A stretch of 63,935 bases of DNA, filler included, from Kipferlia bialata (taxonomy: Eukaryota): NCBI GenBank assembly GCA_003568945.1. It is 6 parts of 6 records of this genome, joined end to end, with 100 filler letters (N's around TTAATTAATTAA, not from the genome) between each part and the next. Parts side by side here need not be neighbours in the genome. Positions count along the whole stretch, not along the records: positions 26,532 to 39,665 come from BDIP01000985.1; positions 39,766 to 52,891 come from BDIP01000986.1; 4 more parts are not named here. One strand, written 5' to 3'. The notes under the pieces were generated by a model that had not been told where the DNA came from, made no database searches, and saw only the letters and a program-made list of their open reading frames with translations. Shown here piece by piece: positions 26,754 to 52,850 of the stretch; positions within the stretch are counted from its first letter, which is position 1; each line of letters opens with the position of its first letter. The translations under genes were made by a program, and so were the position numbers.

Positions 26754-29137
26754 CGAGCCGGAACTGCTTGTATGGCATCTCTTGTACCTCTCTATATCAA
26801 CAAGGTAATGGCCAAGAGTATCTAGGACAGTATAGAGTGCCACCCCAGATACCACAACGGTGTAGAGTCAAGTAGACAAACACAACTAGCCCCTTTCCCA
26901 AAAACACATGCTAGACCCTTTTGCCAGAGTTTTCAACCGTCCATGTGAGGCAAAGAGATCCTCTCCATACGTTGAACCGGTGCACCCTATTGGTACCGGG
27001 TCCCATGACGGACCGACAGGACTTGATCAACCTGCTAGGTACTACTGCTGATATACATCATGATTAGAGGCATAGAGTGTGAAGGAGTTCACTCCATGTG
27101 TCTTTGTGCCATTTGACTTTATCATACCTGTCCTTCACTACGGTATCTAGTGCAGTAACAGGGTGCCTATATACCACCATTGTCGCACATATATCATACT
27201 TCTGGTCAGTTTTGCACAACAGGTGGCGGTCTAAATGTGTGTATTTCATTTTCGACCTATGTCCAAATCTCGATTTGTATATAGCCCCCATGTATATATA
27301 TGTGGATCTACCCCCCTTCCTCTCCATCTGATGTCTAGATGAGCTCAAGCAGATGCCTGAGGTCGCCACCCAGCTGGGGGTGGGCAGGATAGATAGGTAT
27401 GGACCCTTGCCAATTGCCCAAACATCACACCGAAATATATGTGTATATATGTGATTATATCTGGAATCCTGTGCGTATATATCGACTGGTGGGTATATAT
27501 TGGGTTCTATGAGGTACTCTCCCTCCCCTCCATTGTCTTACTCTTGTAGTATCTGTGGGTAGTGCCCTACATACAGTGTGTAGACGTCTGATATTTGGCA
27601 CAAACGGTGTCACATACACTCTCTCCTTCTGTATCACTACTCTCGTGCCCTCTTACTATCACACACCCTGTTCGAACGAGTTTCCCCTCCCCCCTCCATC
27701 CCTCTGTCTTTATATGTATTGTCAAAACGATGACGTCTCTCTTTCTCCCTCAGTATTGTCTCTCTCTCTCTCTCTCTCTCCCTCTGCGCCCTTATTCCAG
27801 GTTGATGAAGTCTGTTATGGGCAACACCCTCTGCAGTGACAGTCTCTCTCTCTCTCTCTCTCCCTCTACACCCTTTTATCAATAGTTTGATGAAGTCTGT
27901 TATGGCCAACACCCTATGCAGTGACAGTCTCTCTCTCTCTCTTTCTCTTCCTCTACACCCTTTAATCAATAGGTTGATGAAGTCTGTTATGGCCAACACC
28001 CTCTGCAGTGACAGTCGTGTCAGGGGTGGCAGCAGGAGACCATCGATGAGTCAGAGGACAACACCAAAGAGGGTAGGGTTCTGTATATAGATTCATATAT
28101 ATACATATATCTTTGCCCCATTGACTTTCAATGAGTCAGAGGACAACACCAAAGAGGGTATGGTGCTCTCTTTCTCTCTCTCTCGTAAGCCCCTTCCACA
28201 CATAATTCATATTCCTTCCATGGTCCATCTCTCTCTCTCTCTACACCCTTATATCAGTCTCTCTCCACCCATGCCCTTGGCACTATGTCTGTCCATGCCC
28301 ATGGTCCATCTGTCAATGGCATACTGGCATCAAAGGCTCTGAAGAACACGTACGTATATATACATATAACATTTATATACTATATATATACTATATATAC
28401 ACTTGTATATATATATATGTCCATCTGTCAAAGGCACTAAAGAACACGTACGTGTCTGTCTATGCACTATACTGTGCATACTCATAGATATATATATGAA
28501 TATGCGTGTCAATGAGAGCTAACCTCCAGCGGCAATGTCATGATCAGTGAGTTTGTGACCAAGCCCGTCAGATTCAGTGACAGGAGCACAATAGGAATAG
28601 GTATGATAATATATATAAATACATATATATACATGTATAGAATTATATATACATATATATATAGTATAGTGTGGTACAGTGTGTATGTGTAAGTGCAGCT
28701 ATTGATTCAGTGACAAGAGCACAATGGGAAAAAGTATATAGAAATATTAGATGAAGGTGTATATATATACATATATATATATATAGGTGATCGTGTATGT
28801 AGCTATGCCGGTCAGATTCAGTGACAGGAGCACAATAGGCATAGGTATGTACATTTACATATTGGTCTCTCTCTCTCGATAGTTTAATCTATGTAAGTAT
28901 TCATTGCGATACTGCTGGTCATAGTTTTTAGCATGTCGAATTCTCTCTCTCTCTCTACATAGTATGTCGAACCCTCACCATAGGTTCCCAGGAGTCCCTC
29001 TGTCGAATTGAGAGGAGGCCATCAATCCCACAGGTACAAACACATATATTGATCTACCAGTACCAGTAGGAGTCACCTCTCTCTCCCTCGCTCCCTTTCT
29101 CCCTACACCCCTAATATCAGCCCCCCTCCACCTCCTC

Positions 29138-29172
<35 letters not shown>

Positions 29173-30024
29173 ACTCCTTATCTCAGCCCCCCTCCACCTC
29201 ATCCCGGTCCCTGTCAAGCTCCATACACAGCACACGCAGGTATGTATATATATTACCTATTTGCCATATATATATATGTATATGTATATATCTCACCCTC
29301 AGCACTCAGAGCTCCCATAGCACACAGAGTACCCACAGCAGCCATGGAAATAGGGGTCCAGAGGTGGGGATTAAGGGGCTAGATGGACTCCCTCCCCTGA
29401 ACGAGGTCACGAAGCCACCGGTCAGACCCTACCAGAAGACCATGTCTCTGCACCGTTTGGAGGTAGATATACCCCCCAACGGGCAGCGTATGCAGTCCTT
29501 GCTGAGCAGGCATCAGAAGAGGGTGGGGGAGAGGAGGAAGGCGAGTGTGAGGGAGAGAGGGGGAGGGAGAGAGAGAGAGGAGGGGACCCAGAGACGCATC
29601 ACTGACTGGGAGAGGTATGTTTACTATACAGTATTTATACATACATTCATGAATGTGTTATTCATAGTAACAGAGTATTAACCTAACTCCAGTGTCAAAG
29701 CGGCAGGTGTATGGGTTATGTGTCCTATTAATACGAACTATATATGTTACTTCTACTGTATATAACTGTAGCAGTATATATTGAGATGAGTATACTAGCT
29801 GGGTCTCACCCCAGTGTCAAGGCAGCAGGTGTCGACCCCCTGCTGAACCTGGAGAAGCACAGCTGCAGTGAGCCACCCATACCTAGGTACAGTGGTATAT
29901 ATATACTAAGATGTATGCTCTTAGGTATTAATTGTCATTATTATAATTATGTATGTAGCATAGAAATTTTATGTATTAAACCTTGAGAAGCACAGCTGCA
30001 GTGAGCCACCCATACCCAGGTATG

Positions 30025-30065
<41 letters not shown>

Positions 30066-30482
30066 CTCCTCTGCCTTTCTCTGTGCATTGCACGAATACA
30101 CTATCTCGGCCCAAACCTTGTCACCACAACGCTCAGCCTGTATTCTAATAGAGTATATATACATACACATTCATATGTGTTATTGTCTCACGCCTAGCCC
30201 TGTCACCACCACCCTCAACCTCGTGGCATCGCAGCAGTCATGGGACCACCAGAGCAAGGTATATATATATGTATAGATATATAACTATTAGTATATATTT
30301 ATATAGAGATACAGAGATGTTCATGTGGCATCGCAGCCGTCATGGGACCACCAGAGTAAGGTATATAGATGTGTATTGATATATAACTATTAGTATATAT
30401 AGAGAGAGAGAGACAGAGATGTTCATGTGGCATCGCAGCAGTCATGGGACCATCAGAGCAAGGTATAAACATGTGTATATGC

Positions 30483-30520
<38 letters not shown>

Positions 30521-30647
30521 CGTCTCAGCAGTCATGGGACCACCAGAGCAAGGTATATATATAGTATACAGACACACATATGCATCGCAGCAGTCATGGG
30601 ACCACCAGAGCAAGGTATATAGATATGTATAGATATATGCTTATTAG

Positions 30648-30683
<36 letters not shown>

Positions 30684-31682
30684 CTCGTGGCCTCTCAGCA
30701 GTCATGGGGCCACCAGAGCAAGGTACATTATAATATACATTATAATATACATTATAATATACATTATAATATATATATAGAGAGAGTGTGTGTGGTTAGT
30801 CACATTCAGTACCCTTTAACCCCATGGTACCGTGGCAGTGACTGAATATGTGTGTGCAAATACTCCTACATTAATGTATATGTATAGATATATATGTCTG
30901 ACCCCTCAGGACCGTGGCAGTGAGAGCGACAACCCAGATGGGATCAATAATAGTTGTAGTATTATATATAGTACTATAGTTCATCTATATATTACATATT
31001 TACCCCTCAGGACCGTGGCAGTGAGAGTGACAACCCAGACGAGTCCTATGCCCTAGACAACATGCCAGGCTGTCTAAAGGGTCTAGCCAGTATTAAGGGT
31101 GCAGTGGTGGGGTCTCTTGACCTAGATGGTCTAGACGGTCTAGATGAGCTGGGCGGTCTAGGGGGGCTAGATGGCTCAGAGGGAGAGATTGGGAGGGGAA
31201 GAGAGAGAGAGGAGAGCCTCGAGGAGGTTGTGGTGCGCAGTCACTCGGATGCTTCGGTGCAGATGAGGTATATACAGGGTGTTACATATATATATATATA
31301 CATGTAGAGAGAGAGAGAGAGAGAGAGAGAGAAGTGATGCATCGGTGCAGATGAGGTATATATAGAGAGTGTCATATATGTATAATACATCACTCCCTAT
31401 CTACCAATACCAACTATCAGGTCCCCCCGCTCCGACCTGAGCTGCATGGTGATGAGCAGCAGCAACAGCAGGTATAGGTGGATGGAAATAGAGTGTATAT
31501 ATTGTGGAGCGTGTATATATTTTAATGTGTATGTCCATTCACAATTAGGTGCAGTGTCCTCCAGGCCGGTGCCAGCACCAGTGTGGGGTGGTCAGATAGT
31601 CAGGTATACAGATATAGATGGACACACTCCCCCTCTCTCTCTTACACCCAAGAACAGCACCGCCTCTGGTTCCTTCTACTTC

Positions 31683-31724
<42 letters not shown>

Positions 31725-32649
31725 ACATACTAGAACAGTACCGCCTCTGGTTCCTTCTACTCCTCCGTGTCGGTCTCTTCTCAGTTGCTGCCAGTCAGGG
31801 GGTCCGTCTCTGCTGCATGCATGAGGTATGTAAGATATTTGATATATCAGTGAATGTATGGTATAGTAGTATTGAGTATTGTAGATGCTTCTTCTCGCTC
31901 CATACACTACAGAGAACTCTCTCTCTCTCTCTCTCTTTATTGATTACCTAACTCTAGCGATGCCTATGGAGACAGCGATACCCTCACAGACTACGAGGAC
32001 ACTCTCTCTCTCTCTCTCTCTCTCTGTCTCTTTCTGCTAATCCTAGTGATGCCTATGGGGACAGTGACACCCTCACAGACTATGAGGACACAGACCCAGA
32101 GGGAGAGGGAGAGAGAGAGAGAGAGATTGACGAGGACACAGACCCAGAGGGAGAGGGAGAGGGGGAGAGAGAGAGAGAGATTGAGGTAGAGGATGAGTAC
32201 AACGTGGGAGACGAGGAACTCGAGAGCCCCACGCGTCTGGAGTGTGGAGAGAGCCCCACACTCCTCAACTCACACACGAGCAGACACCTACTGCCTGATA
32301 AGGGTGTAGAGGGAGAGAGAGAGAGAGAGGGAGAGAAGGTGATGAAGGGAGAGAGGTGGGTGCAGGAGGAGGAGGAGGAGAGAGAGAGAGAGTCCGAGGA
32401 TGAGGAGGAGTGCCTACCTCTGCCAGGAGAGGCAGACGAGGGTATTAAGGGTGCAGAGGGAGAGAGAGAGGAGGAGACTGAGTTTGCCGGCTCCTTCTCT
32501 GAGATTGGGGGGTCATTCTCATCCACATACAGCGTGCCCACAGGGTTCACAAGGCCTGAGGTATCTCTCTCTCTCTTTCTCTCTCTCCGTCTACACCCTT
32601 AATACCTAGGAGAGTGGCATGACTGCAGTGATGGATGACATCCAGTCCT

Positions 32650-32691
<42 letters not shown>

Positions 32692-33124
32692 TCTCTCTCT
32701 CTCTACACCCTTAATACATAGGAGAGTGGCATGACTGCCGTGATGGATGACATCCAGTCCTTCTCTCTCTCTCNNNGAGAGTGGCATGACTGCCGTGATG
32801 GATGACATCCAGTCCTTCTCTCTCTCTCTCTTTCTCTCTCTCTCCCTCTACACCCTTAATGCCTAGGAGAGTGGCATGACTGCAGTGATGGATGACATCC
32901 AGTCCTTCACTCTGTTCAACCACATATGCACTGCGTCACTAGTGATACCCCCTGAGGAGGCCAAGAAGGCTATTAGGTACTGTATATATATTGTACATAC
33001 TTTATATAGTACATGTATGGCATGTAATGTGTATAATGTACTGCATCCCTTGACATACCACCAGATGAGGCTAAGAAGGCTATTATTTATACTATAATTA
33101 CGTATGTGTGTATATACAATCCAG

Positions 33125-33162
<38 letters not shown>

Positions 33163-33502
33163 TCTCATACCTAACCCCAGTGCACTCCAGTCCCGTCTGA
33201 CCAAGGCATCCAATGCACACTCTCATTGTCTATATACTATACACTATATATTGTATCTACATGTATGCATGTTATTCACCCCAGTGCACTCCAGTCCCGT
33301 CTGACCAAGGCAGCCAATGCACACCACGCAAAGACAAGGTATATATATACATGTGTATATGCTATGGGATATATTTGTATATATTTATATATACGTTATG
33401 GGATCCTATATTATAACACACACCACGCAAAGACAAGGTATACATTATATCACAATATATACATATAGAAGTAAAGTAATATGGTGTTGATGGTTACTCA
33501 CA

Positions 33503-33536
<34 letters not shown>

Positions 33537-34019
33537 GTAGATAGGGATCATAATTCTTCTCTACATTTATTTATCCCACTATACTGATACAATAGGTCAC
33601 TGAGACAGTCCCCGGAGTGTGAGGGTGAGACTGACTCCGATGCAGCAGCCAAGGAGAGAGAGAGACTCTATGTCACAGAGTGCGTGCTGACACTGGCCTT
33701 TGACGCACACGCATGGCACAACAAGTACGTTAATGAGTACTTATTCATATATATGTATATATATGTTACACTCATTTCTCTTGTATGACGTACACGCGTG
33801 GCACAACAAGTACGTATGCTCTCTCTCTCTCTCTAGACCCTTATCTCAGGTACCCCAATGATAGTCTGCCCTACCTTCGTTATTTCTCTCTTTCTCTATG
33901 TCTGTTTAGAGCCTTATTTCCCTTACCTCCCTTATCTCAGGTACCCCAATGATGGTCTCCCCTACCTTGCCCTGATCCTGCACAGACACTTTGGACTGGT
34001 AGATACGGTATGTATTAAC

Positions 34020-34052
<33 letters not shown>

Positions 34053-34108
34053 TGCCTTGCACTGATTCTGCACAGACATTTTGGATTGGCATACACGTTG
34101 AATGAATC

Positions 34109-34155
<47 letters not shown>

Positions 34156-35493
34156 CAGGTCAGTCTGACACGGTATACCTCTGCCATGCTGGTGTACAAC
34201 AGCCTGTACAGGTATAATATATATAGTATATATATATACAGATAGTATATATATATATTGATAGATAGGCATTTACTGCATATACGATACTACTTGTATA
34301 CCTCTGCCATGCTGGNNNNNNNNNNNNNNNNNNNNNNNNNNNNNNNNNNNNNNNNNNNNNNNNNNNNNNNNNNNNNNNNNNNNNNNNNNNNNNNNNNNNN
34401 NNNNNNNNNNNNNNNNNNNNNNNNNNNNNNNNNNNNNNNNNNNNNNNNNNNNNNNNNNNNNNNNNNNNNNNNNNNNNNNNNNNNNNNNNNNNNNNNNNNN
34501 NNNNNNNNNNNNNNNNNNNNNNNNNNNNNNNNNNNNNNNNNNNNNNNNNNNNNNNNNNNNNNNNNNNNNNNNNNNNNNNNNNNNNNNNNNNNNNNNNNNN
34601 NNNNNNNNNNNNNNNNNNNNNNNNNNNNNNNNNNNNNNNNNNNNNNNNNNNNNNNNNNNNNNNNNNNNNNNNNNNNNNNNNNNNNNNNNNNNNNNNNNNN
34701 NNNNNNNNNNNNNNNNNNNNNNNNNNNNNNNNNNNNNNNNNNNNNNNNNNNNNNNNNNNNNNNNNNNNNNNNNNNNNNNNNNNNNNNNNNNNNNNNNNNN
34801 NNNNNNNNNNNNNNNNNNNNNNNNNNNNNNNNNNNNNNNNNNNNNNNNNNNNNNNNNNNNNNNNNNNNNNNNNNNNNNNNNNNNNNNNNNNNNNNNNNNN
34901 NNNNNNNNNNNNNNNNNNNNNNNNNNNNNNNNNNNNNNNNNNNNNNNNNNNNNNNNNNNNNNNNNNNNNNNNNNNNNNNNNNNNNNNNNNNNNNNNNNNN
35001 NNNNNNNNNNNNNNNNNNNNNNNNNNNNNNNNNNNNNNNNNNNNNNNNNNNNNNNNNNNNNNNNNNNNNNNNNNNNNNNNNNNNNNNNNNNNNNNNNNNN
35101 NNNNNNNNNNNNNNNNNNNNNNNNNNNNNNNNNNNNNNNNNNNNNNNNNNNNNNNNNNNNNNNNNNNNNNNNNNNNNNNNNNNNNNNNNNNNNNNNNNNN
35201 NNNNNNNNNNNNNNNNNNNNNNNNNNNNNNNNNNNNNNNNNNNNNNNNNNNNCTCTCTCTCTCTACACCCTTATCTTCAGCTGCTGCCCATGATCTCTCT
35301 CTCTCTCTCCCTCTACACCCTTATGTCAGCTGCTGCCCATGATGTAGAGCACTGTGGAGTCAGCCCAGACCTGCTGGTGAATCTGAGGTATAGTGTAGTA
35401 TATACTTTGGATTCGCAACTATATTACTATGTCTGCCTCTCTCTATCTCTACTCCCTTAACACTAGGCACCCCCTGTACCACATGTATGGGTC

Positions 35494-35542
<49 letters not shown>

Positions 35543-36874
35543 TCTCTTAACACTCTTCTTACTGTTAGGCACCCCCTGTACCACATGTATGGCTCCAGTG
35601 CCACTCTGGAGAGGTACCATGCAGCACTGGGAACATGGGTAGTGAGGTACATATATGTATATATTCAATATATACACTATATATATATATATATATATAT
35701 ATAGTATATAGTGTACATGGGTAGTGAGGTGAGGATATACTATATGATGCCACTTTTGGCAATGTAATATATAGGTAACGTATATACCATTCTTGATATC
35801 TGCTTACACCCAGGTACTACCGCCTGTTCGACAATCTCCCCCCTGCCGAGAGTGCCTCCTGTACAGACATGGTGTATGCACTGATAATGGCCACAGACCC
35901 TAAGGTATACATTATATATACACTGTATGTACTATAGTATATATATATACATATACTATATAGTGCCGAGAGTGCATCCTGTACAGACATGGTGTATGCA
36001 CTCATAATGGCAACAGACTCTATGGTATATGATGACATATATAGAGTGCCGCTGGTCAAAAGATTTCCTATACATTATCAGTGTACTACATCTTCACATA
36101 CTCTTCTCTATTATCTTTAATCTATCTGACATCCAGACCGTCTTTGAGAGTGCCGATGACCTCAACAGACTCTGCAGCAAGGCATTCAGTGGCACAATCA
36201 ACCAGCTTCTATCCTTTGAGGAGGTAAGATAGCTATGTAACGCGACATAACTCAATGATTATAGATATAACGCTAGTTACTGACTAACCCCATCAGGAGC
36301 AGGATGTGCTCATGGCCTCCATCATCAGAATGGCAGACATATCAAACGCCTCAAGGTATAATAGTAAATGCAATTATTCATATAGTATATGCATGACTTC
36401 ATACTATTAGTACGTTTGGCCTCCATCATCAGGATGGCAGACATCAGTAATGCATCAAGGTATTATTGCATATGTTTACGTACATGTATAAATAGTATAT
36501 GCATCACTATGAAAGCAAGTGTGTATATTCATGGCCTCCATCATCAGGATGGCAGACATCAGCAATGCATCTAGGTAGAATTGAATACATTTATATATGT
36601 TATCTTTGTATACTGTATACAAATCGATACGATGGGCTAAACACTACATGTATAGGTATATGCATAAGTATATATACTATATAATTGGCAGACATCAGCA
36701 ACGCATATTTGTATCCATAGATGAATGATACAATGAAGTGATTGCCCTATCCGTATCATCTACCAATTTGGGTGTGCTTCTTTATGTATCGCCCTCACCC
36801 CCAGGCCATTCCCAGTGGCCAAGGCACACTCTCTCAACGTCATGAGGGAGTTCTTCAGAACAGGTATGGTCATA

Positions 36875-36910
<36 letters not shown>

Positions 36911-38831
36911 ACCCCTAATCCGGGCGATATCGAGGAGGCCTATTGTTTGTCTCATTCTCTCTCTCTCTCTCCATCTACACCCTCAATCCAGGCGATATTG
37001 AGGAGGCCTATGGACTAGAGGTCGGGGCCTTTAGAGACAGGGCTGAGGGGGCAGAGAGCATCAGAAAGTGTCAGGTACACCCATTTTTACAAGATTATTT
37101 TCCGCTAAGTTGCAAACACCACATCTTTACCATATATGTATATTTAGACAGAGCTGGGGGCAGATAGCATCAGATAGTGCCAGGTACACAATTTTACAAT
37201 ACTTATGTCCACAAAGTTGCAAATATGCCACATTATTAGCATGTATTATAGAGACAGAGCTGAAGGGGCAGAGAGCATCAGAAAGTGCCGGGTACATTCT
37301 ATTACAAGAGAGTATTCAAGACTAGTTCCTCTCTTCTACTCATGCAATGTGCATATATATTGTGTATCGACAGTGTTCCCTAATATCAGGTCTCCTTCAT
37401 CTCGTATATCGTGAGGGACTCTCTGGATACACACATAGAGATATAACAGTACATACATGTGTATATGTGTATATATGTACTGTATCCTTACTGTCAGGTC
37501 TCCTTCATCTCGTATGTCGTGAGGGTCTATGCATAGCCTTAGCTTAGAAACATACATACATACTACATGCCTGTGTATATATATGTACTGTATCCTTACT
37601 GCCAGGTCTCCTTCATCTCGTATGTGGTCAGGGTATATGCTGAGTCACTCAGAGACTTTGCAGCATGCCTCAACCTGACAGGTAGGATAATAATAATATA
37701 ATAGTAATATAGAATGTATCGTGTATACTTGACTGGTATCACAATGTATATACAGAAGCAGGATTGAAAATGGAGAGAAAGGGACTTTGCAGCATGCCAT
37801 ACAGGTGTGCGTGTGTATATATAGTGGACATATATATATATACGTTTGTGTGTGTGTGTATATAGTGGATATACATATGGGTGTGTGTGTATATATTGCA
37901 TCTATTTAGTAACTAGAAGTATTGTCGTGTAATACATACTATACTAGGGTGAACAAGAACATCCAGCCACCTCACCTAATTAACGTTATATATAGTGTTG
38001 GATAGTGTGCTAACCTCCAGGTGAGAAGGAGAGCGAGCGGGAGAGAGAGAGGCAGGCCCTGGGCTCCCTAGATGCAGACGGGGAGACTGACATTGACTCC
38101 TTCGACATCGATGGAGAGTGGGAGGAGGGGGCAGACGCCCGTATCTCACTCGCGTCCCTTGTGCAGAGGATGATTGTGAGGTACACATTTGCGTATACAC
38201 TATATATACATATATGTATAGAGAGAGATTGGTGGAGAGTGGGAGGAGGGGGCAGACGCTAGGATCTCATTAGCGTCCCATGTGCAGAGGATGATCGTAA
38301 GGTACTCTCCTGAATGGGAATATATATGTACAAGTGTATATATAGAGAGAGAGAGATGGATGGAGAGTGGGAGGACATCTCACTCGCCTCTTTGGTTCAG
38401 AGAATGATAGTGAGGTAATGTTCTTCGTGAGTATATCATATACGCATCTCTCTTGCATCGTTCCAGTCCAGAAGATGACCCCATTCAAGTGCATATATGT
38501 TTATAAGTATTAAGAATTGTTATAACTTTAAGTATATAGTGTTATGTAACTATAAGTATATAGCGTATATTAGACTATGTTCTAATGCCCCAGGATGGAC
38601 TCCAACAGAGATGAGTGGGACGACGTGGATTATATATAGTATAGTATACTATATAGTATAGTGTTCAAGACCGATTGTATATATGAGTGTATATACATAT
38701 ATATGTGGGTGTATATAGATATATGATATATGAAATGTCTCTAATGCCTCAGGATGGACTCCAACAGAGATGAGTGGGACGACGTGGAGAGTGAGGTGGA
38801 GGACGTGGTGGCATGCCTCAACGACCGTTGA
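26754..38831 (+). CDS. Class I 3',5'-cyclic nucleotide phosphodiesterase with a long low-complexity N-terminal region (5' partial, gap at 34316-35252)
   Basis: Catalytic motifs occur in order: AAAHDVEHCG, LERYH, IMATD, RMADISNASR|PF, MREFFRTGDIE, CQ|VSFI and NRDEW. The YHNxxH exon is expected to fall inside the N-gap. Confidence 0.88.
27790..38630 (+). repeat. Serial intronic partial copies of adjacent exon edges throughout the PDE gene
   Basis: Direct repeats of 20-70 nt exon segments, for example 27801/27886/27973, six versions in 30197-30722, four in 36297-36706 and three in 38021-38414. Confidence 0.9.
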
Positions 38832-38947
38832 CCGTTGACCGTTGAGAGAACGGAAGAGGAAAGGAGAGGGAGAGAGAGAGAGAGTATTGGGAGAGAGTGT
38901 GTCTAGTTATTAGTTTTCCGTGCAGAGTCCTGAGAGACATGCTGTAG

Positions 38948-38981
<34 letters not shown>

Positions 38982-39765: not shown

Positions 39766-40259
39766 TCGGGCCAGATCTAAGGGTGTAAGGGATATATACA
39801 AGTGTATATATATATATATAGATAGAGGGAGAGAGAGAGAGAGAGAGAGAGCAGTGGTCGGGGCAGATCTAAGCGTTCAGCGGTTATGGGCCGCAAATAA
39901 TAGAAATATAGAATAGTAATAATTCTACTAGTATATTCTACATATACTCTATAATTTTGAAAGCCTACAGAGCAGTGGTCGGACCAGATCTAATAGATTA
40001 GTATATGAGGGACATAATGAGAATATACATAGAGAGATGGATCAGTACTATTACATTGTGCATTATAGAGCTCCATACGCTACTCTTGGTCAGCACACAC
40101 ACACCCTTTCTCTGTCTCACTCAATAAATACATATGCATCTAATTTGTAATGATATATAGTATATATATAGTATATATATAATATATATTACATATACAC
40201 TATACCTTGGTCTTCATCAGCCACTGGCCAGCCTCCACTGTGTCTGGGGGTCAGTTAGG

Positions 40260-40310
<51 letters not shown>

Positions 40311-40957
40311 TCCACTGTGTCTGGGGGGTCAGAAGTATACGTATATCTATCTATCTATATATATCTGTCTATATATATAGCATCAGTATATATATATCTA
40401 TCTATATATATATCATCAGTATATTGTATGGTATACACTAATATATATATATAGAGAGAGAGAGAATACCTGAGTCCATGTGCCAAAGGTACATGCGGTA
40501 GTTCAGTCCACGGGGGCCAAACCTAGTCATCAGAGAGTGTGAATACACGGGTATGTATAAAGAGAGAGAGGGATTTTGAGAGAGAGAGAGAGAACGGGTC
40601 AGTCTACGGGCCAAACCTAGCAGCCAGGGGGAGGGGGGGGGGGAGTGAGCGGCCACAACAGTGATAGTGTCTACAAATATACCCTAACACCCATCAGAGA
40701 GAGAGACACTCCCACACACTTGTACTAACCACACACACGGTACACTCTCACCTGATTAACTAGGCCTAGTAATTAACTAGTTTCACAATATAGTATAATG
40801 TATACCCACCTAACTAGTATCACAGCGAGCGGTGCCTCGGGAGCAACATACACAAACACAGACTTGTGCTGGTGGATAGCAGAGAGTGAGAGAGAGAGAG
40901 AAAGACAGACTTGTGCTGGTGGACAGAGGCAATACCTGAATCAGAGTCGTCAGCCAT
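39766..40957 (-). CDS. 5' exons of a hypothetical protein resembling an uncharacterised bacterial family (3' truncated)
   Basis: Phase-compatible exons give HKSVFVYVAPEAPLAVILVR|FGPRGLNYRMYLWHMDS|DTVEAGQWLMKTK|IWPD. The start codon and first exon are unresolved. Confidence 0.5.
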
Positions 40958-41519
40958 TGCCTAAGATTCTTCTCCTTAGAAGAAGAATGGAGATCAAGAA
41001 GCAGTGTGGTTGAAATTGGAACAACGATTCGGTGAACCGTTGGACTGTCAGTGTGCAATGCACTGCACCTGTCCAACAACGTGTCACTTTGCCAAAAGGG
41101 TTGTGATCCACACTCACTGGCCCAGGACACGGTGTGTATTGTGTATAGATCGAATTTACTATGAGAGTATTACTATGACATGACTTTCTGGCCCACTTTC
41201 CCTACGAGAGGTATGCTCCTCAAGAAGCATCTATCTCTGACTTGAGTCATGTTTTGACCGCAAGGGGGATGACATTACGGTCACACCGAACAACCCTAAG
41301 AGTACAGGATAAGGTATTGATTTAGCCAGAAATATTCGACCCCCTCCCACCATCGGCCGTGAGGTATTGCAAGTTATAATAGTTTGAGTTTTCGCCGACC
41401 TGTTTGCATGTTCAATAGATGCTGCGACTGATACTAGGTTAATACCAATGATAGTGTATAATGTATTAACAGAAATAGGACTCAAGTCATATATTGCCAT
41501 AACACGTTACACGACTGAT

Positions 41520-43898
41520 TCAGGACGGGTGGTAGGTATGAGAGAGCGTCTGGGAGGTTCTACTGTCCAGACGGTCAAGACGCCTCTTGAGCTTGTCAAC
41601 CTGGGGTTACTATGAATAATAGTATGGTATAAAAGAATAGTAATGGAGCATATCTATAAACTACAATATTGATTTACATAACAAAGAAACGAATGTATAT
41701 CATCAATGTCATATGGGCTACCGTCTTCTCTCTCTATCCTCTCTCTCTCTCCGTCTCACACACATAAATGTATATATACATATAAGAGTAACTGTAACTC
41801 TATACACGTGCTATTACGCCACCATCGCTCTCTCCATCTATATTCAAATTCATATATATACCTACTTCTGAGCTACCATCTTCCTCTCCTTCTCCCTCGC
41901 ATCTCTCTCTCTCTCTCTATGGATGCGTATGTGTATATTAACTAATTCACATATATACCTGCTTCTGGGCAACCATCTTCTTCTCCCTCTCTCTCTCTCT
42001 GTCTCTGTGTCTCTCTCTACACACATACATATACTAATATATACATCTATGTATATATATACCTGCTTCTGGGCCACCATCTTCTTCTCTCTCTCCTGCC
42101 TTGCTCTCTGTCTCATAGATAGTCTACCCTGCTCAGAGGTCTTGAACTGATCTGATATAAGGGTCTAGGGAGAGAGGGAGANNNNNNNNNNNNNNNNNNN
42201 NNNNNNNNNNNNNNNNNNNNNNNNNNNNNNNNNNNNGAGAGAGACACACACAGCCCTGCTCAGAGGTCTTGAACTGATCTGATATAAGGGTGTAGGGGGG
42301 GAGAGAAGAATAGGTGTGCAGAGAAAGAGAGATGTAGACTGCCGGCCCCGTGATCACAGTTCCTGTACTGATCTGAAATAAGGGTGTAGAGAGAGAGAGA
42401 GAGAGTACACACCCTTGAGAGTGGCTATGAGTTCGGACTGGTCATGGTGGCCTCTCTCCCTCTCCCTCTCCCTCTGCAGTGCTAGTCGGGCAGGGTCTGG
42501 GATAAGAGAAATCATACACTAATTACACGACTAACACATAATCGTAATCGTCTCATACCCTTGTATCCCATGAGGTGTGTAGGACCATCCATTCACATAT
42601 ACAGGAATATATACATATATGTGTCTATTTCTGACTATATTTGCATATACATAGATATAGACAGAGTACGTCCGTACCTGTGTATTCGATGAGGTCTGAC
42701 AAGACCCTGTATATATGGCTAACTATATGTATATGTCTGATTATATACATATTAATGTATACATATATATCATATATATCATACATATCATATATATATC
42801 ATATATAACTATACCCGTATACCTCATGAGGTGTCTGAGAGGGCCATATCTTACATATCTACACACACAGACATATCTACACACACAGACATATATATAT
42901 ATATACAGAGAGAGAGAGATTACTATACCTGTGTACCCCATGAGGTCTGACAGGGCCATGGCTGGAGAGGCACTGGGGTGAACAGAAGGGTATATGGAGA
43001 GAGAGAGAGAATATGCAGGGAGAGACACTGGCGTGAGTGAAGGGAGGTTACAGAAGTGTAGAGTGTAAAGGGTGAAAGGACACACCAAGTTGTGAATAGT
43101 GGATGATAAGGATATACGCACAAGTACCCAGATGCACTGGTCCTGGGCACCCTGGTAGCTATATAGATGCACCCATATACAGATACATGCATGCATACAT
43201 ACACATATATATATATATGTATCCACGTATCTATACCTTGTGTGTGTATTGATATGTATATCCACGTATATATACCTTGATGCACTGGCCCTAGGCACCC
43301 TGGGACTGGCTGTGGTCCTGTACCTAGTGGGAGTGCATATATACATACAAGTATATACATATATATNNNNNNNNNNNNNNNNNNNNNNNNNNNNNNNNNN
43401 NNNNNNNNNNNNNNNNNNNNNNNNNNNATAGAATATATATATATAAGTACCCTGGGACTGGCAGTGGTCCTGTACCTAGTGGTAGGGTGTATGTATAAGT
43501 ATATATATAAAATAGTATATATTAGTATATACATATAGTATATATATACAAGTACCCTGGGACTGGCTGTGGTCCTGTACCTAGATATCAGCCAATACAT
43601 ATCAGTCAATGGATATACTTTGAAGAGTGTGTATAGAGTATCACATGTAGTAATGGTCCTGTACCTAGGTGTCAGTCAATACACATTCATATACAGCATT
43701 GAGAATAGTACTGTCAATACTATTCACTGTATACAAACAATACCTGTATGGCGACTGGGGCTTAATTTCTCTCTCTCCCATACTCTGTATCAATATATAC
43801 TATTTATACTATCATATACACATGTATAACACTATATATACCTGTATGGCGACTGGGGCCTGGCTGTCTCTCTGTCTCTGTCTTTCTCTCTACAAATA

Positions 43899-43932
<34 letters not shown>

Positions 43933-44017
43933 GTATACCTGTATGGCGACTGGGGCCGTGTTGTCCTGGAAACCCGGGAGGGAGAGGCAGGGACACCAAG
44001 CTAGGGTTAGTTTGGAC

Positions 44018-44058
<41 letters not shown>

Positions 44059-44357
44059 GCGGGAGGGGGAGGCTGGGACACCCAACTGGGGTCAGATAGG
44101 CACACACACAGACACACACACACACACACACATATATATATGGAGAGAGAGAGATAGAGAGAGAGTGCGTGTGTGAGGGGGACGCAGGGACACCAAGCTA
44201 GGATTAAATAGGCATATGTATTGAGGGAGAAGGAGGGGGTATACAGCAAAATCATACACATACATATACACACACACACACATACATATTCATAAACAAC
44301 AGTGTACCTGGCTCCTAATCAACTGAGCTGCCTTAATCTGGCCCAGCTGTGCCTCAG

Positions 44358-44394
<37 letters not shown>

Positions 44395-44469
44395 GTATAT
44401 AGAATATACATTAACTCACTTGACTCCTAATAAGTTGGGCTGCCTTCATCTGGCCCAGCTGTGCCTCGG

Positions 44470-44501
<32 letters not shown>

Positions 44502-46769
44502 AATATAATAACATACAATAGAGTATTAGTACCTGGCTCCTGATTAGTTGGGCTGCCTTCATATGACCTAACTGTGCCTCGGTCTCCTGTAACTTGTGGT
44601 CACGGGCCTAGATGGTTAGAGGGTGTAGGGAGAGAGAGCGAGCGAAGGTACCTTCACTTGGCTCTTGAGCTGGTCTGATCTTTACACATTTTCTATATAT
44701 ATATATGTTATTCTATATATACACTATATAAATATATTCACTACTATATACCTTCACTTGACTCTTGAGCTGGTGGATCATGCTGCTATTTACATTTACA
44801 CTATATATACATATATATACTAAACGACTTTATATATACTATACTACATACAAGTATATTTACTACTATACCTTCACTTGGCTCTTGAGCTGGTCGATCA
44901 TGCTCTGCTGATATATACATGNNNNNNNNNNNNNNNNNNNNNNNNNNNNNNNNNNNNNNNNNNNNNNNNNNNNNNNNNNNNNNNNNNNNNNNNNNNNNNN
45001 NNNNNNNNNNNNNNNNNNNNNNNNNNNNNNNNNNNNNNNNNNNNNNNNNNNNNNNNNNNNNNNNNNNNNNNNNNNNNNNNNNNNNNNNNNNNNNNNNNNN
45101 NNNNNNNNNNNNNNNNNNNNNNNNNNNNNNNNNNNNNATATATATATATATACCTTCACTTGGCTCTTGAGCTGGTCGATCATGCTCTGCTGTTCCAACA
45201 GACTCACTCTCCTGCTCTCAAGGGTGAGGCTGATATTAGGGGTGTACAGGGAGAAGAGAGAAAGAGAGAGAGAGAGAGTATAAGCGGTGTACAGGGAGAG
45301 AGACATATCAACAAGCATACATATGTGTCGTCTCATCACTAACCTTAGGCTCTCGACATCCTTGGCAGTGGCACTAAGGGACCTGGGTGTCAGTATATAT
45401 ATATATATATATGAATACTATATATGTGGAATGTTTACAATAGACATATCCTACACTATACTATAGATATATATATACTCATCTATATACTATAGATATA
45501 TACATACAAATACCATATCATTGGCAGTGGCACCGGGTGTCAGGACACACTCCTGTCAGTTCATTATACATACTATACATACTATTTATACTATTCTACA
45601 TATATATATATATATATTCTACTCACATATACGTGCACATGTATACAAACACAGAAACCTGTATGATATATAACACAAATGATTTTCTCATCTATTGCGT
45701 CTCTCCAGAGCTACCACTCTATATGCATATACTATATATACTATATATATATACACAGACCCCGACGCAGTCACCATTATACTATACACTAAATAATATT
45801 ATATACTCTATATACTCTATTATATTTATACGCATGTGGAATATTCTCACCTGTTGCGTCTCTCCAGAGCTACCACCTGCTCTTCAAGAGAGGCAATTCG
45901 ACGGGACTGGTGTTAAGGGTATATATTTATATATAGAGATAGAGAGAGAGAAAGATTTAGGGAGGATATCCTGCGGGACTGGTGTTAAGGATATAGAGAG
46001 AGAGAGAGAGGAAGGGATACCGAGTTAATTTGTTATTAGTAATTAGTAATTTGATATTTGCTATTAGGTGTAGAAAGCGATATGGATAGAGAGAGGTATA
46101 ATTAGTCCACACAAACCCGCTGCACATGTGTAGAGAGAGAGACTGTTACGCTAGAACCGGTTAATGGAATGATAGGTGACACACATATACATCTAAATAC
46201 ATACCTAAATACATACCTGTGTGTCTATGTGAGTCTCTCTGTCCCCGAGTCTAGCAGTTCTCTATCTCTCTTCCTCTCATTACATATATACATATATTAT
46301 AATACCTGTGTGTCGATGTGTGTCTCTCTGTCCCTGAGTCTAGCTGTCAGGGCACCATCGGTAGAGAGAGGGGGAGAGAACTTGGCCTGGAGTGAATAAA
46401 GGGTATATGAGGGGAGAGAGAGGGAGATAGAGGGGGGGAGAACTTGGCCTGGGGTGAACAAGGGTGTAGGGAGAGAGACATACATATATGGCTCCCCTTT
46501 TGCGTCTCTGAAAGGAGGCTCTCGATATACATAAAATATCACACTGAATACCTCACAATCTTCTTAAGTTGAGCCACCTAAGCTCCCTCTCAATCCCCAG
46601 GTATATATATACACAAACAATATCGCACATACCATAGCTCTTGCGGTCCTTAACTGAGCAACCATCTCTCTCTCTCTCTCTGTCTCTCTCTCTCTCTCTA
46701 TATATATATACATACCTTAGCCTTTGCGGTCTTTAACTGAGCCACCATCTCTCTCTCTCTCTCTGTGTG

Positions 46770-46805
<36 letters not shown>

Positions 46806-46939
46806 CATACCTTGGTCTTTGCTGCCTTGAGCTGGGCCACCAGATATCTATCTCTCTCCCCCACTATATATACATATATGTATATACTAACACATATTTG
46901 TACCTTGGTCTTTGCTGCCTTGAGCTGAGCAACCAGATA

Positions 46940-46970
<31 letters not shown>

Positions 46971-49900
46971 TTACATATATATACCTTGGTCTTTGCTGCC
47001 TTGAGCTGAGCAACCAGATCAGAGTTGGTGGACTGATGGGTAAGAAGAGAACAATGAGTGATACTCTAGCATAGTAAAGGTATATGCAATAGATAATATA
47101 CAATACAGGGAGAAAGAAATCTGTATTGACACAATCTACCAGAATATGAGTATACATATCCAATACCTAGTCTGTGTACGGCAGCATCTCTCCCTCTCTC
47201 TCTCTATATATATACATACTATATGTACTATATATACTATATATATATATTTCTATACCTCCAGTCTGTGTACTGTAGCCTCGGCCTGCCTCAGCTTCAG
47301 AGCGGCACTGTCTCTCTCTCTCTCTCTCTCTCTCTCCCTCTCACGGTCCTGAGCAGAAGCCTGAAATTAAGGGTGCAGAGAGAGAGAGAGAGAGTGAACG
47401 AGAAATGAGGGAGTGTTTGTATGTGTGAGAGACAGAGATCCCCACCTGAGATCCCACTGCAGCCAGTCTCTCCCTAGCCTCCTCTGCCTCTCTCTCTCTC
47501 TCCCTGGCTGTCCTTTCAACTCTCTCCAGTCGCTGGGAGAGGTCACGGCACCTGGTGCGCTCGGCCTGTCTTAGGGGTGCATAGTAGATGAGTAAATACA
47601 ATATCGTGTAATTATGTTGCAGAGATGGTACTAAAGCACCTAAGAGGTAAGAATACTGGCTGAATAAATATATATATATATACCTCGAGAGCGTCTGTCA
47701 GTCTTACACGGTCCCGGTCGGTCTGCTCTCTCTCCCTCTCGGTTCTCTCTCTCTCGGCCTCTAGGGAACGGACACGCTCAGACTGATAATAAGGGTTTAC
47801 ATATATACTAATGTATTGACATGCAGGACCAGAGTGGATATAGATATATACACGCTCAGACTGATGTCAAGGGCAAGGTACAATATACACAAGAGTATAT
47901 CGAGATATATTGTATGATACAATTGTGTCTAGTATACCTGTAGTGCCATAGTGGACCTCACTGACTGCAGCTCCCTCTCATAACACATTACATTACATCA
48001 ATATACATATATATATTACTATATATATATATATACCTGCATAGATAGAGTGGACCTCACTGACTGCAGCTCCCTCTCAGTCTCAGACACGGCACAGGAC
48101 AGGGCGGCGGCCTAATAGTAAGAGATAAGTGTAGATTGAAACATATATATTGTCATTAAAGAGATAAGAGAGAGAGAGAGAGACACGGCACAGGACAGGG
48201 CAGCGGCCTGAATGTTAGAAGTAGCAATAGTACAAGAGAAGTGTAATAACCATATTGTAACAATAGTAATAAAGGTAAGGCAATATAGTCTCAGACACGG
48301 CACAGCAGAGGGCAGCAGTCCATTAATATTAGGAGTAACAAGAATTATATATATATACATATATATATAATAGATATAATATACATATACAGCTATACCT
48401 CACTGCGCTCTCTCTCGAGTGTTGACCTATCCCCCTCTAGTCCCTCAAGAGTGTGTGCCCAGTCCCTTCTCTCTCTCTCAAAGGTCTCAGTCTCTCTCTC
48501 TCTCTCTGCTCTCTCTCTGGCTAGGGTCTCTCTCTCCCTCTGCAGAGAGAGAGAAGTCTTAGACAGGGCGTCCTGGGCAGCTGCTCTCTCTCTCTCCCTC
48601 TCCCTTCTCTCCCTCTCGGTCTCCACCATGAGAGTCTGTAACTGAGACTTGGCCTGATGTCAGTATCAGTAAGGGTATCGGCATCGTTAGAAGCTGGTGT
48701 GTGGTTCCATTCCGTTCAAGTGGACTGAAGGCGCATTACTCTCCTCGTGTACACTGGCATATTCCAATAGTGTACACCATGTATCTATATATATGTAATT
48801 GCACCATATATATATGTATACTAGCTCATCTAACTGGCCCTTCATACAAGCAGTTCCATCCCTCTCAGCCTGCATGTACTTCATAATAATACAGATAGAT
48901 AGATATATACATAGAGAGTGAACACATACCTCGTCCAACTGAACCTTCATGGCAGAAGCCCCCTCCCTCTCAGCCTGCATGGACAGGGTGGTCTCGTCAA
49001 GGGAAGACTGGAAATTAAGATACATTATACCTTAACAATCACAAGTTATACTACTATATATACAATATGTATATGTGCCTGCATGGAGAGGGTGGTCTCA
49101 TCTAGGGAGGACTGGGGGTAAGGATGTATGTTCCGTATCAAAACTACAGTAAAACATACTTAAATATAATTACACATGAAAGATGGTTAATTCGGATATT
49201 TTACTGTAAATGGAAATTCACAACATATATACTACTATGGTGGGTGGTCTCGTCAAGGGAGGACTGCAGGTTATATGAATATATATACACATATACAAAT
49301 ACACATGTAACTACGTATATATGGGCATATGTTGCATGGAGAGGGTGGTCTCGTCAAGGGAGGCCTGCGGGTAAAAGCGACACAAGAACCGCAACACCGT
49401 AACACATTCATATATATCCTGCGAGGGACTCAAGTCAATATATGTATATATATACACACATATATATATAGTATACCTCCAGACTGGCTATTGATGCAAG
49501 TAGGTCACTTCTGGCAGACACGGCAGCGTCACGCTCAGACTCCCTGGGGGTAAAAATGCTAAAACCGCCATCACTATAGGTAAATACCATAAGAGCAGAG
49601 AACTATTTGTAATACAATAACTGAGACTCCTGGGGGTCAATGTGCTAAGAATGCCCTACTATGCAAAGACTCATTATCAGAGCAAAAGTGGCTATCGGTA
49701 TAGTAAGTATATGACCGCTGATTTACCTCAGCTGCACGAGAGATGTCAGAGCCTCCACATCGCCAGAGAGTCTCTCTCTCTCTCGCTCCTCTGCGTCCCT
49801 CTCTTCCTGCAGAGTCCGGATCTCTCTCTCTCTCTCCTCCTTAAGAGAGTTAAGCTCCTGACATCAGACGAACTATATATATATATATAACAATGTATAT

Positions 49901-52835
49901 ACAATACATATAATACAAATGAAAAAAGACGTCAGAGGAAAATGTATCAGTATCAATATGTGTATATGAGGGTGATGAATGGGGTAGCGTGTCCATAGCT
50001 AACCGTGACGCAAGCAGGACAATAAATACACATATACACGAATTTGTATATAACACTGAATACATATAAATGGATATAAAGTGCACCTGCATGATTTGTA
50101 TATATCACTGAATACATATAAATGGATATTAAGGGTACCTGCTTGAAGAAAATATATATAGTATATATAGTATATATAGTATATATTAATAGTATATATT
50201 AATTAATGCATAGATTATGATACCTGCTTGAGACCCTCGAGCTCAGCATTCTCTCCCTCTCTCCCCCTCTCTCTCTCTGCCTGACAGGTGAGCCAGAATT
50301 AGAATATAAATAGGAATACAAATAGAATATAACAGAAATATGGGTGTAGGTGGAGTGCCAGATGGAAGTATAGGAGCAACTCATAGAATTACATTAATGA
50401 GGATACGATGTAGAGAGGACGTCATTACAGATGCAAATCGAGAAAGAGATACACCAAATACCTCCAGAGCTGCATGAGCAGCGTCTCTCTCCTCCTCTAG
50501 ACCCTTCAGGGTGAGAACCATCTGCTCCTTCTCTGCCTGGAGACTCTCTCTCTCCTCGTCTGAAGCAGAGACTCTCTCCCTCTCAGTGTCTCTCTCTCCC
50601 TCTACACCCTTCAGTGTCTCTGTCAGCCTGTCTCTCTCCCCCTCAATGGTAGCGAGAGAGAGGGATAGGGTGGAGATACGAGACTCAAGGGCAGATGTGC
50701 CAGCACCCTTCTCTCTCTGCATCTCAGCATTGGCAGCAGCGAGTGTCTCTCTCTCTTGCTGTGACTTCTCTAGAGATGCAGATAATCTCTCTCTCTCCTT
50801 CTCTACCTTCTCTCTCTCCCTCTCTGCCTCCTCCAGAGATGCCCTCAGTGTGACAACATCACTCTGCATGCCAAGGTACTGCTCTCTCTGCCTCTCCCTC
50901 TCTTCCTGCTCAGCTGAGTGTCAGTAGGAGTATGATAAAATTACTGTCAACGAGTGATATACACATATATGTCGGTATGAGTATGATAATAACTGTGTCA
51001 ATGTGAGTATGCATAGGTAATATACATATAAAACATATAATAATATTGTTTAATATACACATATATGTATATATATTACAATATATATTACACATATGTA
51101 AATATATAACAGTATATAATATACACACATATATATATACATACCTGCCAGAGTGCCATTGAGAGCAGACACATTGGCCTCGAGTCTCTCTCTCTCCCTC
51201 TCAAGATTCTCTCTCTCCTTCTGAGACTCTTCAAGTGAGAGTCTCAGCCCATCTCTCTCTCTCTTTAGAGCATCTCTCTCTCTCTCAACCTCAGCCTTGG
51301 CCGTTTCTACCCCCTGAGCAAGCCTCTCTCTCTCCCTCTCTGCCTCCTCCAGAGATGAAGATAGTCTCTCTCTCTCTTGCTCTGACAGCTCAAGGGAGTC
51401 TCTGAGAGCAGACACCTCTCCCTCCCTGCTCTCTCTCTCTTCCTTGAGTGAAGCCTCGAGAGTATCAATCTGACCCTCCCTCTCAGAGAGAGAGAGAGCC
51501 TTCTCGCCAAGAGTGTCGTTCAGTCTCTCTCTCTCTCTCTCCCCCTCGGAGATAGATGTCTGCAGTCTCTCTCTCTCTCTCTCCCCCTCTGATAGAGATG
51601 CCTTGAGAGCACTAACCTCGGCACGAAGGAGCTCCATCTCTCTCTCTCTCTCCTCCTCTCCCTCTCTGGAATCCTTGGCCAGTTCCAACTCTCCCTCAAG
51701 GCGCCGAGCTGTCTCTCTCTCCCCCTTAATGGTCTCCTTAAGCTGCCCAACCTCACTCACTAGAGTATTCCTCTCTCTCTCGGTGTCTGATGCCAGAGTC
51801 TCCAGTCTCTCTCTCTCTCTCTCTCCCTTAGACAGAGACTCCTTGAGGGTAGTAACCTCAGACTGCAAGGCGGCGAGGGCTTCTCTCTCTCTCTGCCTCT
51901 CTGCCTCTAGACCCTTCTGTGTCTCGGCCCACTCCTCTCTCTCTCTCTCGATAGTCGTTCTCTCTCTCTGAAGCTCGGCTGTTAGTCTTGTGCGGTACTC
52001 CTGCGATTAGAATTGACAGAAGGCCCATAGATATAAATACATCTATCTCTATCTCTCTCTATATATATGTATACACTCCTACTCCTGAGTCTTGTTCCCT
52101 CGGCATACATACACATAGAGTGCATGTCCACCTCTCTCTCTGTAAATAGATATGAATATATTATATGTATACATTATATGTATATACTATATGTATATAT
52201 TATACCCATAACCACCCACCCTCTCCTGCGTCCTAAGTGTCTCAGCAGCCACTATTGACTTCTCCCTTTCGGCATCTCTCTCTTCCTCCAGACCCCTTTG
52301 GGACAGTACCAACTCCTCTCTCTCCCTCTCAAGCTTCTGTGGTGAGTACAACGCTAGAGATACTCCTAAGAGGTATTCTACACTACTAATAGAAGAAGGT
52401 AAGCGTAGAATATGAATATATGGATATAGTACCTGTAGGTTGGCCTTCACAGCCTCTCTTTCTCCCTCCACTCTCTATATATACATATATATATATAAAT
52501 GTTCAGATTGTTTACTTACCTGAACCCTCTCGAGTGCCGACCCGGCAGCTCTCTCACTGTCCTCTCTCTCTCTCTGGATCTCGGCCATCTGAGAGGAGTG
52601 GAGGGCCTGAAATGAGGGGGTAGCTAGTACATATCTGAATACATGTTAAGAATAATATATAAATATATATATATACATATCATAATCATACCTCCCATGC
52701 TCTCTTGGCCTCCTTGACAGCACGTCTCTCTCTCTCTCTCTCTATATGTGTATATACATATGAACATATATATATATATATATATATATGGATATATATA
52801 TACCTCCCATGCTCTCTTGGCCTCCTTGACTGCAC

Positions 52836-52838
<3 letters not shown>
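41520..52838 (-). CDS. Very long E/R-rich coiled-coil protein (5' truncated), many exons
   Basis: Large heptad-rich exons (51145-52003, 50462-50923, 48399-48654) and many small GT-AG exons. The last exon reads VDKLKRRLDRLDSRTSQTLSHTYHPS*. No family recognised. Confidence 0.75.

Positions 52839-52850
<12 letters not shown>
41716..52850 (-). repeat. Serial intronic partial copies of adjacent exon edges throughout the coiled-coil gene
   Basis: Examples: three versions in 44308-44608, four in 44651-45230, six in 46551-47032 and five in 48824-49365. Confidence 0.9.

Follow-up and report, generated by a model that had tools for sequence, protein, structure and literature searches.

Silently diverged duplicates of exon-intron junctions in the introns of two Kipferlia bialata genes

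Two genes with partial exon copies in their introns

The window considered here is a stretch of 63,935 nucleotides (nt) from the free-living protist Kipferlia bialata (assembly GCA_003568945.1), in which six unrelated scaffolds are separated by N-flanked stop-codon spacers (13220-13231, 26476-26487, 39710-39721, 52936-52947 and 60747-60758). Two of these scaffolds (26532-39665 and 39766-52891) each carry a long gene whose introns hold partial copies of neighbouring exons, referred to below as echoes. The first gene (27339..38832, + strand), which we take to be PDE-like from its sequence motifs, was modelled with 29 exons in an open frame; it is broken by an N gap and contains 44 echoes in its introns. 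The second (41520..52606, - strand), a coiled-coil gene whose start lies outside the scaffold end, was modelled with 25 exons, also in an open frame, and contains 30 echoes. Both models were built by hand, with GT-AG at all introns, and neither translation contains an internal stop. Spliced joins were seen for PDE exons 22-23 and 26-29 in the read contigs listed. Pfam scans of eight single PDE exons gave no match, single exons being too short for Pfam, and the coiled-coil gene gave weak coiled-coil matches below the cut-off.

Echoes were searched by comparing each exon with its two flanking introns at the nucleotide level, in a codon-blind manner. A score of at least 14 retained 74 echoes; 86 segments reached at least 11, and the remaining 12 were discarded. 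Among 1160 control pairs of an exon with a distant intron, 25 reached a score of 11 and one reached 14. Three exon and echo pairs quoted in the original prediction were located within 1 nt of where they had been placed, one of them (29693-29710) with a score of 13. The 74 echoes are 14-77 nt long and occur in 38 of 52 introns, copying 34 of 54 exons. Their layout is strict: the 5' edge of the exon is the starting point of 29 of 30 upstream echoes, and its 3' edge is the end point of 37 of 44 downstream ones. None sits at the opposite edge, none is anchored at both edges, and the largest share of an exon found in an echo is 73%. The AG or GT splice dinucleotide is retained in 62 of the 69 anchored echoes. 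Such an edge layout is what a single duplication over one splice junction has to produce, and homology also extends into the intron flanks of the units, whose identity exceeds background (0.68 vs 0.53 and 0.64 vs 0.55). The echoes are real tandem duplicates of exon-intron junctions. The other, truncated ends had been described as usually bounded by (AG)n or (AT)n, which goes too far: only 18 of 73 adjoin a dinucleotide repeat, vs a background of 12% (P=0.002).

Public reads were compared with the 3' part of the PDE gene (35716-38851). Contigs of a DNA run (X1) equal 35716-36856 and 36986-38851 with 0 differences at a depth of 381-457, and a single contig of 1665 nt spans 36986-38620, including live exons 27 and 28, most of exon 26 and eight echo pieces. 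Ten of the 13 echo junctions are bridged by at least 31 nt on each side within one contig. Live exon 22 (35814-35904) likewise shares one read contig with its 59-nt 3' echo (35964..36022). Among the matches listed, X1 also shows three other letters and three small indels, located at a conserved motif and at repeats. In this part of the gene, exon and echoes are on the same molecule. It had been suggested that the echoes might be an assembly artefact, in which haplotypes, for instance of a mixed culture, are concatenated at microsatellites, and where the reads bear on it this suggestion is not supported. Three quarters of the junctions lack a microsatellite, and the echoes contain stops, unlike live haplotypes. 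The X1 contigs are short-read contigs, perhaps from the source sample of the assembly itself, and speak against assembler mis-joins rather than as independent biology; some exact duplicates also flank N gaps. We consider an artefact of the whole set highly improbable. For part of the ten echoes that adjoin or span N gaps, scaffolding duplication is probably the right explanation: an exact 52-nt copy lies on either side of NNN at 32722-32828 (echo 32777-32823 being exact across NNN), a probable scaffolding overlap. Exact copies likewise flank gaps at 44922-45137 and 42182-42236.

A second run (X2), recorded as 'RNA?', was taken as RNA by guess, and its contigs are spliced. Among the contigs listed, live exons are spliced together in those at a depth of 170-197, and unspliced ones at 3.6-4.9 show echoes; the main spliced transcripts of the PDE 3' part leave the echoes out. 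This bears on the idea that echoes are used, through alternative or non-canonical splicing or through collapse of the DNA between direct repeats, so that they enter mRNA and are under protein-level selection now. The retained splice dinucleotides would suit such use, as would the 23 of 54 echoes that add in-frame length, vs about 18 by chance, and rare use may escape contigs. However, the two ends of the exon are never present in one echo, only two of 74 offer an AG|GT swap point in register, and stops and indels are present, which makes current use very unlikely.

The echoes also say something about splicing itself. Introns are 128-752 nt long with echoes and 63-366 nt without, and most echo-bearing introns contain a decoy splice site closer to the partner site than the live one. 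The live sites, in turn, are always the pair bounding the shortest exon, so that tolerance of echoes is likely a sign of exon definition, with splice sites paired across exons. If so, K. bialata would select splice sites across exons, because most echo introns hold a decoy nearer the partner site. Intron lengthening by echoes bears on the intron richness of Kipferlia among fornicates; the K. bialata genome paper gives 124,912 introns.

The original prediction spoke of a candidate undescribed system, and as to the structure it was mistaken. Duplicates of exon-intron boundaries are known as mirages in amphioxus, in Adh3, the globins BflGb6 and BflGb9, troponin C and PGBD5 (PMC3087553, PMC3902484). 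As described in the accessible text, mirages are tandem copies over a 5' or 3' exon-intron boundary, in units of about 50-200 bp, most with AG or GT, which leave splicing unaffected, vary in copy number between haplotypes or cells and are of unclear origin, unequal crossing-over having been proposed (PMC3087553). The K. bialata echoes resemble them in spanning one boundary, in retaining AG or GT in many, not all, copies, and in leaving the splicing of exons 22-23 and 26-29 undisturbed. They differ in that units of BflGb6 share 81-100% identity and evolve in concert, whereas the echo flanks average about 0.65; moreover, they belong to a metamonad and hit 38 of 52 introns. Echoes therefore work like mirages but are no textbook homogenised minisatellites. 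What is new relative to mirages is the density and the strong silent bias described below; the word 'synonymous' is absent from the main text of the amphioxus globin paper (PMC3087553). In the mainly non-subscription literature searched, no earlier account in Kipferlia or protists, or of a silent bias, was found, and only the amphioxus papers surfaced.

Silent divergence between echoes and live exons

Echoes and live exons differ at 187 positions in 2425 nt, of which 134 are third codon positions. The differences are mostly synonymous (127 of 187), as had been claimed. A shuffle that preserves the mutational spectrum gives 48.4 +/- 5.7 synonymous changes, with a maximum of 70 in 5000, and one that retains neighbouring bases gives 58, with a maximum of 82 in 3000. 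The excess persists without the ten N-gap echoes (123 of 179 silent) and when each event is counted once (112 of 168). Fourfold sites differ at 85 of 366 (0.23) and zerofold sites at 48 of 1594 (0.03), a ratio of 0.13. The ratio of non-synonymous to synonymous change (dN/dS), put forward in the original prediction as a comparison of echo with exon and run here for the two genes, is accordingly far below 1, with omega at 0.12-0.21 by exon bootstrap. Per-site non-synonymous over synonymous difference (pN/pS) is 0.11-0.15 in both genes, both echo types and both PDE halves. Alignments forced to the splice edge whatever their score weaken the signal to 139 silent vs 89 replacement changes (ratio 0.18).

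One explanation would be ordinary dead duplicates of the mirage type, formed in one lineage, their silent bias coming from constraint on the live exon alone or from mutation context. Their anatomy fits mirages as the globin paper describes them (PMC3087553). For such copies the expectation of dN/dS at 1, adopted earlier, is too lax, since a constrained live exon beside a dead copy brings it near 0.5. A dead copy of this kind predicts about 41% silent changes and a ratio of about 0.56, with a minimum of 0.25 in 3000 simulated runs that include a detection filter. The observed 68% rejects this null (P=1e-13; for unique events, P=2e-11), about 18 lost splice sites are predicted and seven observed, and even the context-preserving nulls stop well short of 127. 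Dead duplicates are thus already contradicted and hardly credible as a full account, and the earlier claim of protein-level selection in the history of the echo sequences is borne out. Biased processes do not replace it: silent changes have no GC direction (58 vs 52), CpG-type changes number 16 of 187, and neither GC-biased conversion nor CpG decay accounts for the bias. Silent differences show no gradient with distance from the splice site, pS being 0.23-0.30 in every bin.

Among the echoes themselves, 38 of 60 differences are silent, as are 31 of 54 at private sites, against an expected 26%, so that their own lineages were under selection. Eleven silent changes are common to all echoes of an exon. 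Across 69 echoes pN is unrelated to pS (rho 0.02) and stays at 0.04-0.06 at any pS, while pS of single echoes reaches 0.82. Serine codon-family switches are present, as beside live exon 24 (36297-36355), whose three 3' echoes begin at 36417, 36529 and 36686 (region ending at 36706) and leave the peptide unchanged while serine TCA becomes AGT or AGC. Two exons exist in three mutually diverged versions of one peptide each: PDE exon 28 (live 38021-38180, + strand; 3' echoes 38225-38301 and 38353-38414, the latter internally deleted) and coiled-coil exon 19 (live 44607-44533, - strand; 3' echoes at 44473 and 44361). Signs of decay are nonetheless there, namely two stop codons, the loss of the splice dinucleotide in 7 of 69 and internal indels. 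Silent-biased divergence, flat low pN and present decay together point to two components, a deep divergence accumulated under selection and a slight recent decay.

Proposed allelic rewriting and its competitors

The exon and intron parts of the duplicated units have diverged very differently. Mean identity is 92% in exon parts and about 65% in intron parts, intron flanks reach at least 85% in only eight of 63 echoes, and the two divergences are uncoupled (rho -0.10, n=63). Of the eight echoes whose exon part equals the live exon, seven show intron-flank identities of 0.53-0.68, near background. Since the flanks are nearly saturated while the exon parts are fresh, we infer that the duplicates are old and their exon parts rewritten. 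Rewriting has to yield silent differences, and the donors must therefore be other lineages. Our preferred reading, at a probability of roughly 0.6, is that echoes are old junction duplicates whose exon parts have been repeatedly rewritten from strongly diverged alleles by exon-confined recombination. An allelic origin in the wider sense, including the swap-only variant weighed below, seems quite probable.

Under allelic rewriting, one junction would first be copied by short duplication or one-sided repair, sometimes joined at a microsatellite. A copy with two splice sites would amount to an extra exon and be purged, and copies with one site could persist provided that the spliceosome, in pairing sites across an exon, chooses the nearest. 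If the species is hyperdiverse, its alleles would then share usable homology only in the exon, and misaligned conversion or unequal exchange with a live exon could rewrite the exonic portion of an echo. A donor from the same allele would leave an identical echo, one from another allele would leave silent differences, and copy number might also be altered. Between rewrites the echo would decay, by about 0.02-0.04 changes per site, and the silent diversity required of the donors would be about 0.25. With theta at 0.25-0.3 and a mean age of 0.02, values chosen to fit, a model of allelic donors yields pS 0.22-0.24 and pN 0.03; ratios of 0.42-0.92 result over 18 settings when live exon and echoes convert each other in a single lineage. 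Of the mechanisms offered originally, a blend of two fits best. Recombination between strongly diverged alleles and conversion with the live exon can be kept if confined to the exon part, and the microsatellites put forward as guides are present at only a quarter of the junctions. Serial exon replacement, another of those mechanisms, predicts a near-to-far gradient, which is absent (6 arrays for, 5 against, 5 ties).

Known recombination biology makes allelic rewriting plausible, though unproven. In the parts of the cited papers available, crossovers cluster in exons in hypervariable Schizophyllum (PMC4209137), fornicates have no Rad51A, two Dmc1 paralogues and, like other metamonads, no non-homologous end joining (PMC8516963), and DMC1 tolerates mismatches (PMC7809202). 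Schizophyllum commune offers a close likeness, with exons as the only high-identity landing sites between alleles and silent diversity of 0.13-0.20 (PMC4209137, PMC4576712). The difference is that in Schizophyllum crosses and population samples supplied the measurements, and the accessible text mentions no junction duplicates, while diversity and exchange in K. bialata are deduced from one genome. For the duplication step, one-sided invasion with microhomology-mediated break-induced replication or fork stalling and template switching, as far as the available text describes them, would leave a short duplication, one end being set by homology and the other by a microhomology junction (PMC4888836). 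They would differ in that only 18 of 73 echo junctions adjoin a repeat and that echoes form recurring arrays at splice junctions.

In silent-cassette conversion, as in trypanosome VSG, Borrelia vlsE and chicken immunoglobulin pseudogenes, partial silent copies exchange with an expressed gene, and the cassettes are amino-acid-changing donors to the expressed locus. The echoes, unlike these, lie in introns of ordinary-looking genes, carry silent differences and seem to receive sequence rather than donate it. Local coding duplication with synonymous divergence is also shared with tandem exon duplication, mutually exclusive exons and intron gain at AG|GT. No echo has both splice sites or a whole exon, which sets it apart from duplicated or mutually exclusive exons, and the rarity of in-register AG|GT distinguishes echoes from intron gain by AG|GT duplication, the Rogers model cited in the available text of PMC3087553.

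A swap-only allelic variant holds that echoes were born as slippage duplicates within the same allele and never rewritten, ordinary crossovers later replacing the live exon with that of another allele. It also requires hyperdiverse recombining alleles, without misaligned conversion, and accounts equally well for the low omega and the geometry. The eight echoes with well-preserved flanks, the in-frame duplications inside exon 14 and the 11 shared silent changes are in its favour, and rapid turnover of intron microsatellites could weaken the argument from uncoupling. Against it, exon and intron parts should diverge together, whereas identical exon parts adjoin nearly saturated flanks, and echoes of one exon differ silently among themselves. 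We hold it to be unlikely. A different source of donors would be paralogues, homeologues or sister-species DNA, acting through ectopic conversion in a duplicated or once-hybrid genome or through introgression. The very diverged echoes and the serine switches might suggest this, and PDE paralogues do align on exons 24-25, one of them on an echo. Nevertheless, depth at exons 23, 26 and 27 stays at the single-contig level at 82% likeness (391-457), with no close second copy seen there, and the ratio stays the same (0.12-0.15) in N-terminal exons of low complexity and in the coiled-coil gene. We regard such donors as quite unlikely.

Several observations weigh against allelic rewriting. An X2 contig from a PDE paralogue aligns to the echo at 36538-36576, so that paralogue donors are possible at conserved motifs and the serine codon of this echo may be ancestral or paralogue-derived. 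The read contigs show essentially one haplotype; no donor allele was seen in the two public runs listed, which represent one sample, nor did a relative turn up among the 595 pattern matches that exon 28 produced in a metagenome scan. The diversity required exceeds the 0.20 reported for Schizophyllum in the available text (PMC4576712). The literature search turned up nothing on sex or on diversity within populations of Kipferlia, and the main-text parts of the K. bialata genome paper make no mention of meiosis, ploidy, polymorphism, heterozygosity, duplication or microsatellite. The spread of divergence among echoes (chi-square 94) falls within both constant and coalescent ranges and separates the models poorly. 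Finally, the density of local direct repeats per kb is 3.85 and 3.44 for the echo-rich pair of scaffolds vs 0.83, 0.53, 0.39 and 2.23 for the other four, and the model leaves this 4-10-fold excess over three of those four unaccounted for.

If allelic rewriting is true, one apparently single-haplotype genome would contain samples of other alleles and provide evidence for genetic exchange in a free-living fornicate, with an estimated silent-site diversity that would stand above the Schizophyllum figure. The echo test could be applied to other single genomes with mirages, and there would be a mechanism for mirages, which according to the globin paper are of unclear origin. A bolder extension, which we regard as improbable, is that the arrays form a standing two-way archive of alleles, in which mismatch-tolerant, Dmc1-only recombination would write exon edges of other alleles into introns and sometimes back into the live exon. 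A fornicate without known sex would then store and reshuffle record-level diversity in its own introns.

Echo positions and other features of the window

Along the PDE-like gene (+ strand), live exon 2 (27973-28072) has 5'-edge echoes at 27801-27844 and 27887-27929 and a 3'-edge echo at 28128-28157. Exons 3 and 6 have one echo each (28419-28436; 29121-29149) and exon 4 has two (28704-28730, 28807-28844). Live exon 8 (29815-29886) is followed by a 3' echo at 29979-30019, its 5' echo being the one under the cut-off. Live exon 9 (30198-30258), with a 5' echo at 30116-30139 and five 3' echoes at 30325, 30427, 30520, 30582 and 30682, occupies the region 30116..30722. Exon 10 has echoes at 30910-30938 and 31336-31355, exon 13 at 31653-31684 and exon 14 at 31959-32002. 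Exon 14 also contains an in-frame duplication of about 16 codons (32086-32190, + strand), and the duplication process is thus seen to strike exon interiors. Live exon 15 (32867-32976) has 5' echoes at 32610-32654, 32722-32768 and 32777-32823 and a 3' echo at 33036-33085. Echoes of exons 16-21 follow at 33181, 33419, 33786, 33850, 34055, 34296, 35281, 35467 and 35715 (region 33181..35728). Live exon 26 lies at 36992-37074 and live exon 27 at 37606-37681, and the echoes around them, at 36924, 37156, 37249, 37390, 37498 and 37780, span 36924..37798, and exon 29 has a 5' echo at 38594-38629.

In the coiled-coil gene (- strand), live exon 8 (49007-48930) has 5' echoes at 49361, 49263 and 49111 and a 3' echo at 48879-48825. 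Live exon 10 (48111-48037) has two 5' echoes and one 3' echo within 47950..48316, and live exon 14 (47032-46985) has 3' echoes from 46938, 46845, 46747 and 46664, the last under the cut-off, within 46641..47032. Echoes of exon 15 (46448-46429, 46258-46217), exon 16 (45717-45692) and exon 17 (45533-45517) lead to live exon 18 (45229-45154), whose 3' echoes at 44910, 44784 and 44675 share the region 44308..45229 with exon 19. Echoes of exons 20-22 and 24 lie at 44197, 44082, 43868, 43761, 43580, 43475, 43155, 42709, 42278, 41991 and 41895 (region 41862..44197). Near the scaffold end on the - strand, an exon-like fragment at 52433-52475 ends in a 5' splice site without a clear match in the adjacent exon, being either an orphan echo or an unmodelled exon, and 52692-52836 holds two 3' echoes whose live exon lies past the scaffold end.

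The echo-rich scaffolds are lower in GC (0.44 and 0.42 vs about 0.50 elsewhere, about 6-9 points) and about 3-10 times richer in microsatellites (fraction 0.12-0.15 vs 0.02-0.05). A third gene (39766-40960, - strand), outside the counts above, has junction echoes at 39766-39993, 40232-40327, 40514-40620 and 40859-40926. Scattered junction echoes in other scaffolds (14796-14907, 15451-15649, 8617-8748, 54285-54422, 56022-56127, 60987-61143 and 62209-62312) mean that the feature is not limited to two genes. An intronless Rab stretch at 13676-14095 agrees at 100% identity with a K. bialata protein, and apart from that protein no relative above 58% identity was found. By eye, 18515-19130 (+) would be a profilin-like gene, 55690-58740 (+) a putative actin-related gene and 26130-26431 (-) a pentapeptide-repeat-like fragment.

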